Origin: Escherichia coli
GTDB taxonomy: Bacteria; Pseudomonadota; Gammaproteobacteria; Enterobacterales; Enterobacteriaceae
Reading direction: 5' to 3' (one strand)
Assembly (NCBI RefSeq): GCF_003334305.1
Contig: NZ_QOWS01000086.1
Length of the DNA: 298 nucleotides
The first letter of the stretch is position 1; each line of letters starts with the position of its first letter. This document shows positions 2 through 298 of this stretch, in pieces. The position numbers and the translations under genes are program-made. The notes beneath the pieces were generated by a model. That model searched no databases, was not told where the DNA came from, and saw only the letters and a program-made list of their open reading frames with translations.

Positions 2-77
2 TGGTGGGTCGTGCAGGATTCGAACCTGCGACCAATTGATTAAAAGTCAACTGCTCTACCAACTGAGCTAACGACCC
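2..77 (-). tRNA. lysZ: tRNA-Lys (anticodon UUU), complete, 76 nt including genomically encoded CCA
   Basis: Seen in sequence: the reverse complement of 2-77 reads GGGTCGTTAGCTCAGTTGGTAGAGCAGTTGACTTTTAATCAATTGGTCGCAGGTTCGAATCCTGCACGACCCACCA. It folds as a canonical cloverleaf: acceptor stem GGGTCGT/ACGACCC, D-stem GCTC/GAGC, anticodon stem GTTGA/TCAAT (one G-U pair), 7-nt anticodon loop CTTTTAA with anticodon TTT (plus-strand 42-44 = aaa), 5-nt variable loop, T-stem GCAGG/CCTGC with T-loop TTCGAAT, discriminator A, then CCA. Established knowledge: this matches the E. coli-type tRNA-Lys(UUU) as I remember it. The paralog symbol is tentative: lysZ is the downstream gene if the 146-bp spacer is the lysY-lysZ interval of E. 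coli K-12, which I recall but cannot verify; all paralogs share one sequence, so the name depends only on genomic position. Confidence 0.96.
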
Positions 78-111
78 ATACGGGTGTTACCTGAAAGATT
101 TCTACTCGGGG

Positions 112-128
112 CCAATCTTTAAGATTGG
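112..128. repeat. Perfect 7-bp inverted repeat (ccaatct / agattgg) with 3-nt loop, overlapping the CCA of the tRNA-like fragment
   Basis: Seen in sequence: 112-118 ccaatct pairs with 122-128 agattgg, loop 119-121 tta. In the transcript it is CCAAUCU-UAA-AGAUUGG, whose first three nucleotides are the CCA of the pseudo 3' end. A second copy of aaagatt at 94-100 can pair with aatcttt at 114-120, giving a mutually exclusive alternative stem. Confidence 0.35.
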
Positions 129-143
129 TGTGTCGTGCAGGAT
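124..143 (-). repeat. tRNA-Lys 3'-end-like fragment (degenerate partial copy of T-stem 3' strand + acceptor 3' strand + CCA) inside the spacer
   Basis: Seen in sequence: 124-143 attggtgtgtcgtgcaggat versus 222-241 attggtgggtcgtgcaggat, 19/20 identical with a single t/g difference at 131. Similarity is lost beyond 144: gactcgc versus tcgaacc in the real gene. On the transcribed strand it reads ATCCTGCACGACACACCAAT, against ATCCTGCACGACCCACCAAT at the real 3' end. No intact cloverleaf can be built around it, so it is not a functional tRNA. Confidence 0.6.
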
Positions 144-168
144 GACTCGCTTCGCTTGCCCTACGGGC

Positions 169-184
169 CGTTGCTGGCGCAACG
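169..184. repeat. GC-rich 6-bp inverted repeat (cgttgc / gcaacg) with 4-nt loop
   Basis: Seen in sequence: 169-174 cgttgc pairs with 179-184 gcaacg, loop 175-178 tggc. No U-tract follows on either strand, so it is not an intrinsic terminator. Confidence 0.35.
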
Positions 185-197
185 TTATCCTTCACGC

Positions 198-220
198 TTA
201 ACATCTGAGTTTGATGTTAA
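198..220. repeat. Perfect 8-bp inverted repeat (ttaacatc / gatgttaa) with 7-nt loop, AU-rich, beginning 4 nt after the CCA end of the upstream tRNA in transcript orientation
   Basis: Seen in sequence: 198-205 ttaacatc is the exact reverse complement of 213-220 gatgttaa, with loop 206-212 tgagttt. In the minus-strand transcript this is UUAACAUC-AAACUCA-GAUGUUAA, 3 nt after the CCA of the 224-298 tRNA. Function is not determinable from sequence. Confidence 0.4.
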
Positions 221-223
221 AAT

Positions 224-298
224 TGGTGGGTCGTGCAGGATTCGAACCTGCGACCAATTGATTAAAAGTCAACTGCTCTACCAACTGAGCTAACGACC
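224..298 (-). tRNA. lysY: tRNA-Lys (anticodon UUU), 75 of 76 nt present; 5'-terminal G truncated by window edge
   Basis: Seen in sequence: 223-298 is identical base for base to 1-76, so 224-298 is the same tRNA from the encoded CCA (224-226, tgg on plus) through tRNA nucleotide 2. Nucleotide 1 would lie at position 299, outside the window. Anticodon at 264-266 (aaa on plus = UUU). The paralog symbol is tentative, as for the first copy: this is the upstream gene of the pair in the transcribed orientation. Confidence 0.94.

Follow-up and report, generated by a model that had tools for sequence, protein, structure and literature searches.

The lysT operon of E. coli is expressed as a single transcript of ~1100 nt, from which RNase P separates all of the tRNAs; the terminator is removed first, and processing then proceeds in the 3'->5' direction (Agrawal, Mohanty and Kushner, NAR 2014, PMC4176162). 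Inactivation of RNase P reduces the mature tRNA-Lys fraction to 0.17. The rne-1 mutation alone produced no new intermediates of this operon, with a mature tRNA-Lys fraction of 0.89 vs 0.95, and the authors concluded that RNase E has a very minor role. The enzyme cuts the 133-150-nt spacers of the operon only when RNase P is inactive, as a backup; in rnpA49 cells, its cuts in the lysY-lysZ spacer give rise to a valZ-lysY species that carries no spacer-probe signal. For the long Lys trailers, the same authors proposed removal by RNase II/PNPase and finishing by RNase T (PMC4176162).

Trailers in which a hairpin sits directly beside the tRNA have been described at transcript ends. In the same operon family, RNase P takes off the terminator hairpin that follows lysV/lysQ with a cut at CCA-AU|G, two nucleotides past the lysV CCA and just 5' of the hairpin (PMC4176162), and the work on proline tRNAs describes RNase E cutting directly after the CCA (PMC8860583). 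A third group comprises tRNA spacers processed by RNase E, such as argX-hisR-leuT-proM and glyW-cysT-leuZ, which carry an AU-rich single strand just 3' of the CCA. A close relative of the spacer described here is the RtT RNA of tyrT. It is annotated in K-12 as the discrete RNA RttR, with its 5' end 8 nt past the CCA of tyrV and its 3' end precisely at a pseudo-CCA; a modulating role in the stringent response has been proposed for it in the literature. Literature searches on RtT, rttR and lysT spacer sRNAs returned nothing about modules in the lysT operon.

The window analyzed here is a 298-nt stretch of E. coli DNA with 100% identity to E. coli chromosomes, at a site flanked by cpoB and nadA. 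ARAGORN located two copies of tRNA-Lys(UUU), identical and both encoded on the minus strand, with a 146-nt spacer (78-223) between them, the length given in the original prediction. The upstream gene spans 224-299(-), with its first base beyond the window edge, and its CCA ends at 224. On sequence grounds, the locus was assigned to the lysY-lysZ spacer of the lysT tRNA operon. The spacer differs from its counterpart in K-12 MG1655 by four substitutions, and the operon of the matched strain, RM9131, contains six tRNAs rather than seven. The RNase P cut for the downstream tRNA-Lys falls at the 77/78 boundary (PMC4176162). The window contains the following features.

2-77, minus strand: downstream tRNA-Lys(UUU) (ARAGORN and Rfam).
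78-111, minus strand: what remains of the short-type Lys-Lys spacer, with the leader for the downstream tRNA (compared with AR Bank #0349, whose spacer has 48 nt).
112-128, minus strand: second hairpin, CCAAUCU-UAA-AGAUUGG, perfect and containing the pseudo-CCA (inverted repeat, fold and locus L071).
126-133, minus strand: single-stranded 8-nt tail ACACACCA, the pseudo 3' end (Rfam RtT match and K-12 comparison).
134-143, minus strand: 3' arm of the closing helix, AUCCUGCACG, within a copy of the tRNA-Lys 3' end (direct repeat, folds and RNAalifold).
158-168, minus strand: core hairpin GCCC-GUA-GGGC (folds and Rfam RtT alignment).
169-184, minus strand: core hairpin CGUUGC-GCCA-GCAACG (inverted repeat, folds and Rfam RtT alignment).
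187-196, minus strand: 5' arm of the closing helix, CGUGAAGGAU (folds, and RNAalifold on 31 sequences).
198-220, minus strand: the hairpin under study (inverted-repeat listing, folds, covariation and shuffle estimate).
221-223, minus strand: AUU linker leading from the CCA to the stem (sequence reading).
224-298, minus strand: upstream tRNA-Lys(UUU), equivalent to K-12 lysY (ARAGORN, Rfam tRNA at 71 bits and K-12 comparison).

The hairpin under study is formed by inverted-repeat arms at 198-205 (TTAACATC) and 213-220 (GATGTTAA), which are complementary at 8/8 positions and separated by a 7-nt gap. The minus-strand RNA reads CCA-AUU-UUAACAUC-AAACUCA-GAUGUUAA-GCG, such that the 5' arm UUAACAUC runs from 220 to 213, the loop AAACUCA from 212 to 206 and the 3' arm GAUGUUAA from 205 to 198; U221·G197 is a possible ninth pair. 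A perfect 8-bp inverted repeat had been predicted within 198-223, and these arms and their 7-nt loop confirm it, but the trinucleotide after the CCA had been given as AAU, which is the plus-strand reading; the transcript has AUU. The isolated hairpin has a predicted dG of -7.2 kcal/mol (z = -6.5 vs shuffles), and it also appears unchanged when the whole spacer is folded. Perfect Watson-Crick hairpins of at least 8 bp with a loop of 3-10 nt occurred in 0.79% of 20,000 dinucleotide-preserving shuffles of the 146-nt spacer. The hairpin therefore exceeds chance expectation; the comparative data agree, and the view that the stem is not accidental was upheld on both counts.

The spacer as a whole is related to the RtT family. 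The Rfam RtT model (RF00391) matched the window at 126-292(-) with 51.7 bits, vs a gathering score of 45, and four RtT matches were present in the RM9131 operon (47.5-60.2 bits). The hairpin at 198-220 is not an element of the RF00391 model and sits in a 44-nt insertion relative to its 130 positions. It is the 5'-terminal stem-loop, and the first element, of a ~98-nt RtT-type module, and represents a previously unmodelled stem of a Lys-type variant within this known repeat family. From the real CCA to the pseudo-CCA, folding gives the hairpin, a closing helix that encloses two core hairpins, and a tail. The original prediction did not notice the RtT-type (RF00391) membership of the spacer; treating the spacer as an RtT-type module instead of a plain RNase E linker corrects a reading that was plausible and in line with textbooks.

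Both hallmarks of RtT units were found. The tRNA 3' end is duplicated as a direct repeat (119-143 vs 217-241, 92% identical: AUCCUGCACGAC(C/A)CACCAAU(U/C)UUAA), and the CCACCA of the model aligns to CACCA at 126-130 of the window; the Rfam match stops at 126, and the tail at 126-133 reads ACCCACCA in K-12. The GGAU-type/AUCC-type closing helix is present as CGUGAAGGAU/AUCCUGCACG, both in a single fold and by RNAalifold. Its 5' arm, CGUGAAGGAU, follows the hairpin without a gap and is antisense to the tRNA-Lys 3' segment AUCCUGCACG. Its arms are invariant within the Lys family, and covariation is seen solely between the Lys and Tyr tRNA contexts. The K-12 tyrT-type unit has an analogous closing helix, GGGGAAGGAU/AUCCUUCCCC, in which the outer pairs are GGGG/CCCC instead of the CGUG/CACG of the Lys type, changed on both sides. 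The Lys and Tyr helices differ with the tRNA; therefore, the 5' arm varies with the tRNA 3' end present in the unit and is antisense to it.

Compared with RtT RNA, the window spacer shares the core AACGUUGC...GCAACGGCCCGNAGGGCGAGCGAAGCGAGUMAUCC, a closing-helix 3' arm that is a copy of the resident tRNA 3' end, the ...ACCA terminus and a score above the Rfam threshold. The Lys-type module differs in lacking ~40 nt of the Tyr-type 5' half and in carrying the hairpin within the 44-nt insertion. A discrete RNA is annotated for tyrT (rttR) only.

Several smaller observations concern the same region. The closing-helix 5' arm is antisense to the T-stem/acceptor 3' strand of the resident tRNA (CGUGAAGGAU for Lys and GGGGAAGGAU for Tyr, locus L070), and it could also pair with the genuine tRNA 3' strand. 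At window position 131, the pseudo 3' end reads GACACACCA vs GACCCACCA in K-12 and in 30/31 aligned modules of the class that carries the hairpin (class A, defined below); one of these 31 modules has GAUCCGCCA. Position 131 shows a lineage-specific C-to-A change in a copy that precedes another tRNA-Lys. A third small core hairpin showed apparent covariation at alignment columns 73-86 (window ~144-157), where the alignment is out of register, with the variants GGC-GAA-GCC, GAC-GAA-GUC, GC-GAA-GC and GGU-AAA-ACU; with this hairpin included, the core would be modeled as a four-way junction. In strains without the module, a homolog of the second hairpin sequesters the real lysY CCA (locus L071, 1316-1333).

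Homologous trailers were collected from one genome per species using a pattern of the tRNA-Lys 3' end, 35-65 nt and CGGCCCGNAGGG. The scan yielded 66 loci and 104 trailers, 97 of them distinct and all labeled or recognizable as Enterobacteriaceae, in a sample that the exact-match pattern biases toward well-conserved modules and that mixes orthologous and paralogous spacers. An enterobacterial-type lysT operon was also seen on contigs labeled Hylemonella sp. (a MAG; L023) and Chryseobacterium sp. 18061 (L067), which probably reflects contamination or mis-binning. By the sequence that links the CCA to the core, the trailers divide into classes A, B and C, of which class A carries the hairpin under study. 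Class B is the lysT-valT type (AUCGYU..GGUGGA..CGAU), and class C is the lysZ-lysQ type (AUUUAAAGGUGGUUACUGGUAGAG) and has no stable hairpin.

Covariation was assessed on the class A set, 35 distinct trailers that represent at least 15 genera of enterobacteria. Stem cells were paired in 96.5% of cases, compared with 34-45% when the partners were slid, and compensatory double changes were found in 7/9 stem pairs; examples of double-sided changes are AACGUC/GACGUU, UUCAACAU/AUGUUGAA, AAUGUCU/AGACAUU and AACACC/GGUGUU. None of 500 shuffles matched the observed covariation counts. Applied to the whole module in 31 sequences, RNAalifold recovered the same stem, flush with the closing helix and with invariant spacing. 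The loop was more variable than the stem (majority frequency of 0.70 vs 0.88), the core, including both GC-rich hairpins (158-184), was invariant, and the linker between the CCA and the stem was 1-3 nt long in all 35 homologs (A, AU or GU). The stem has decayed in the Enterobacter hormaechei subsp. hoffmannii lineage. The covariation check that accompanied the original prediction was passed, with 7/9 compensated pairs and 96.5% of cells paired across homologs.

The pairing is also strand specific. Wobble cells in the 35 class A stems comprised 33 G·U vs 5 A·C, and pairing reached 96.5% when read on the sense strand vs 87.6% on the antisense strand. Both the excess of G·U over A·C and the difference between strands indicate that the tRNA-sense RNA is the selected molecule, and the hairpin is a conserved RNA structure under RNA-level selection on that strand. 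These data bear directly on a reading at the level of DNA, in which the repeat is a protein-binding or recombination palindrome, or a by-product of module duplication with no function as RNA. The 25-nt direct repeats of the tRNA 3' end that flank the module are in keeping with such an origin, as is the fact that the module is gained, lost and swapped between spacers. A DNA palindrome or protein-binding repeat does not, however, fit a stem that keeps its pairing while its sequence changes, with 7/9 pairs compensated and the bias to G·U and to the sense strand just described. No promoter-like site was found, no terminator-like site was found at the hairpin or on the transcript strand, and the start codon of the one overlapping open reading frame is not conserved; we consider the DNA-level reading highly improbable.

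Other candidate identities for the site were rejected. An intrinsic terminator does not match the stem, which is not GC-rich, having two G-C pairs, and is followed by AAGCGUG with no U tract; the terminator scan reported none there. The lone terminator-like hit in the window lay on the plus strand at 169-184, and the real terminator of the operon follows the last tRNA-Lys. No sigma-70-like internal promoter was found in the window scan. A 54-aa open reading frame (40-204, minus strand) has its AUG in the 3' arm of the hairpin, and in homologs this codon is ACG, AUA, GUG and others; because the start codon is replaced and the core loop lengths vary, the coding reading was rejected. The frame extends from the 3' arm of the hairpin across the core and into the tRNA downstream, and it recalls the "tpr" frame annotated in the tyrT repeats; like its start codon, the reading frame itself is not conserved here. 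By eye, only UUUAACA resembles an rrn boxA, with the GCUC part missing, and the consensus for an IHF site is not matched; sequence-specific sites of either kind are also disfavored by the compensatory changes.

Within E. coli, the module is an optional feature. Strain AR Bank #0349 (locus L071, 900-1560) has seven tRNAs separated by spacers of 35/51/48/33 nt, carries no RtT units and so lacks all five of the K-12 modules; its 48-nt lysY-lysZ spacer is the same as the portion of the window spacer past the pseudo-CCA. A 54-nt query that runs from the CCA through the hairpin into the first part of the core was found in 4093/5426 complete E. coli genomes, at a median of two copies, and was absent from 1333. 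The whole ~98-nt RtT-type module, from the real CCA to the pseudo-CCA, is a presence/absence polymorphism. It is missing from about a quarter of complete E. coli genomes and is therefore not required for tRNA-Lys maturation. The trailers are also exchangeable: in E. coli 23CRST010 (locus L072, 1010-1160), the lysY-lysZ spacer carries a class B trailer, AUCGCUAAGGUGGAAGCGGUAGUAAAA, where the window has its hairpin, joined to the core and downstream part that the window also has; this indicates that 5' trailer cassettes swap between operon spacers. The first stem of the module is under RNA-level selection, yet the entire module is optional in E. coli, and strains with and without it offer a clean natural experiment on what RtT-type spacers do.

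The hairpin may serve as a boundary or 5' cap stem of this optional RtT-type module, an interpretation we favor with about an even chance of being correct. The module lies between the real lysY CCA and the duplicated pseudo 3' end, and in the polycistronic lysT transcript the hairpin would fold 1-3 nt past the CCA, stacked on the closing helix CGUGAAGGAU/AUCCUGCACG. In this position it could keep the inserted module self-contained and self-folded and limit the unpaired RNA at the tRNA 3' end to ACCA and the short AU linker. That linker would then be the only place for an endonuclease to free the tRNA from its structured trailer. RNase P and RNase E are the candidates for such a cut, and the enzymes of final trimming could act there as well. 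A cut there would leave a released spacer RNA with a base-paired 5' end. What the hairpin does for processing or stability, and through which enzyme, is our inference. RttR in K-12, which starts after the tyrV CCA and ends at the pseudo-CCA, provides a precedent for the release of such modules. Counted against a boundary role are the dispensability of the module, the exonucleolytic trailer removal proposed in PMC4176162, the lack of small lysY-lysZ spacer species described there for the wild type, and the class B and C trailers, which show that a hairpin in this place is not universal. In silico folding of the nascent transcript gave an acceptor-stem probability that dropped from 0.98 to 0.13 when the hairpin was deleted and was 0.96 when one arm was scrambled; any effect on folding would therefore be one of spacing.

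The layout of the boundary resembles that of the trailers removed from lysV/lysQ by RNase P and from proline tRNAs by RNase E, in that a CCA is followed by 1-3 AU-rich nucleotides and a hairpin. Those hairpins are GC-rich intrinsic terminators at transcript ends, whereas the window stem is AU-rich, internal and without a U tract. The finding is also relevant to trailer removal in an operon processed 3'->5' by RNase P, where the trailers are long and structured. The hairpin may position a cut or slow exonucleases, and these two proposals are considered here in turn.

On the model of the original prediction, the hairpin may position the primary RNase E cut within an AU-rich linker lying between the tRNAs. 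The enzyme prefers to cleave at RN|WUU, and CCA-A|UUU(U) in the linker is compatible with this consensus. An AU-rich single-stranded segment is present a few nucleotides 3' of the CCA, as in the argX-hisR-leuT-proM and glyW-cysT-leuZ spacers, and in the folds it is the sole unpaired stretch between two helices. Once RNase P has been inactivated, RNase E does cleave the long spacers of the lysT operon (PMC4176162), and the proline tRNAs described in PMC8860583 are cut by it right past the CCA. Unlike the tRNAs of those RNase E-processed spacers, however, the tRNAs of the lysT operon are separated by RNase P, with RNase E as backup only, and separation that depends on RNase E in vivo does not hold for K-12: rne-1 cells showed no new intermediates (0.89 vs 0.95), and loss of RNase P lowered the mature fraction to 0.17 (PMC4176162). 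Strains without the hairpin or the module are also common. The claim that RNase E is the separator was abandoned for this operon, and a primary RNase E cut positioned by the hairpin is unlikely.

The hairpin could instead act as a barrier or pause site for 3'->5' exonucleases (RNase II/PNPase) on the 146-nt trailer, protecting the CCA. The chew-back would follow the RNase P cut at the next tRNA. RNase II/PNPase are the enzymes proposed for these trailers (PMC4176162), and the stem begins 1-3 nt from the CCA. The GC-rich core hairpins would, however, be met first, and the stem (-7 kcal/mol, two G-C pairs) is weaker than these; an exonuclease stalled by a hairpin beside the CCA would be expected to hinder final trimming by RNase T, and strains without the hairpin mature their tRNA-Lys. 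A protective barrier of this kind is very unlikely.

The comparison with RttR raises a different function, in which the hairpin would cap and protect the 5' end of an RtT-like small RNA that is released from the spacer (~223->126, ~98 nt, ending in ACCA) and has a role of its own. ompA-type 5'-terminal stem-loops stabilize bacterial RNAs, and the putative spacer RNA, if cut in the linker, would similarly have a stem starting 0-2 nt from its 5' end. K-12 RttR has the same layout, with its 5' end past the CCA and its 3' end at the pseudo-CCA, and the tyrT RtT RNA is the one for which modulation of the stringent response was suggested. The core is invariant across genera, and the hairpin is flush with the closing helix. 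For spacer probes in the wild type, on the other hand, PMC4176162 describes no small species from lysY-lysZ, and a stable spacer RNA is therefore not evident; that paper does not use the words "hairpin" and "stem-loop," and the lysY-lysZ hairpin goes unmentioned. Class B and C modules have different 5' ends, and the module is optional. A functional released RNA is a rather unlikely explanation, and the boundary or 5' cap stem is the reading that we retain.

More broadly, RtT-type units might be a duplicative, possibly mobile family of modules that attach to tRNA 3' ends and release CCA-ending mimics of the tRNA end, although we consider this improbable. Each unit would carry an arm antisense to the tRNA T-stem/acceptor 3' strand together with a copy of the 3' end, a proposal that we hold just as tentatively. 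If this were true, the released mimics could have roles in tRNA surveillance or stringent control, and the hairpin would cap the Lys-type module at its 5' end, as cassette A in a set of at least three exchangeable 5' cassettes (A, B and C).

The remaining observations concern other units of the operon. Past the last tRNA-Lys, an RtT unit lies between two copies of a CCA-AUGUAAAAAGCGCCCUAAAGGCGCUUUUUU terminator (locus L001, 2347-2501; locus L069, 545-745), and it keeps a degenerate T-arm (GCAGGUUUGA), which suggests that the RtT core was inserted into the T-loop of a tRNA copy that has since decayed. Class B trailers showed apparent covarying stems (AUCG/CGAU, UACU/AGUA and UAUC/GAUA, with a GGUGGA loop) in a heterogeneous set with an unreliable alignment. 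Class B and C trailers at many loci, including L001 and L069, share a conserved GGUGG motif 8-10 nt past the CCA, a complement of the CCACC found at the real or pseudo 3' end of the tRNA.
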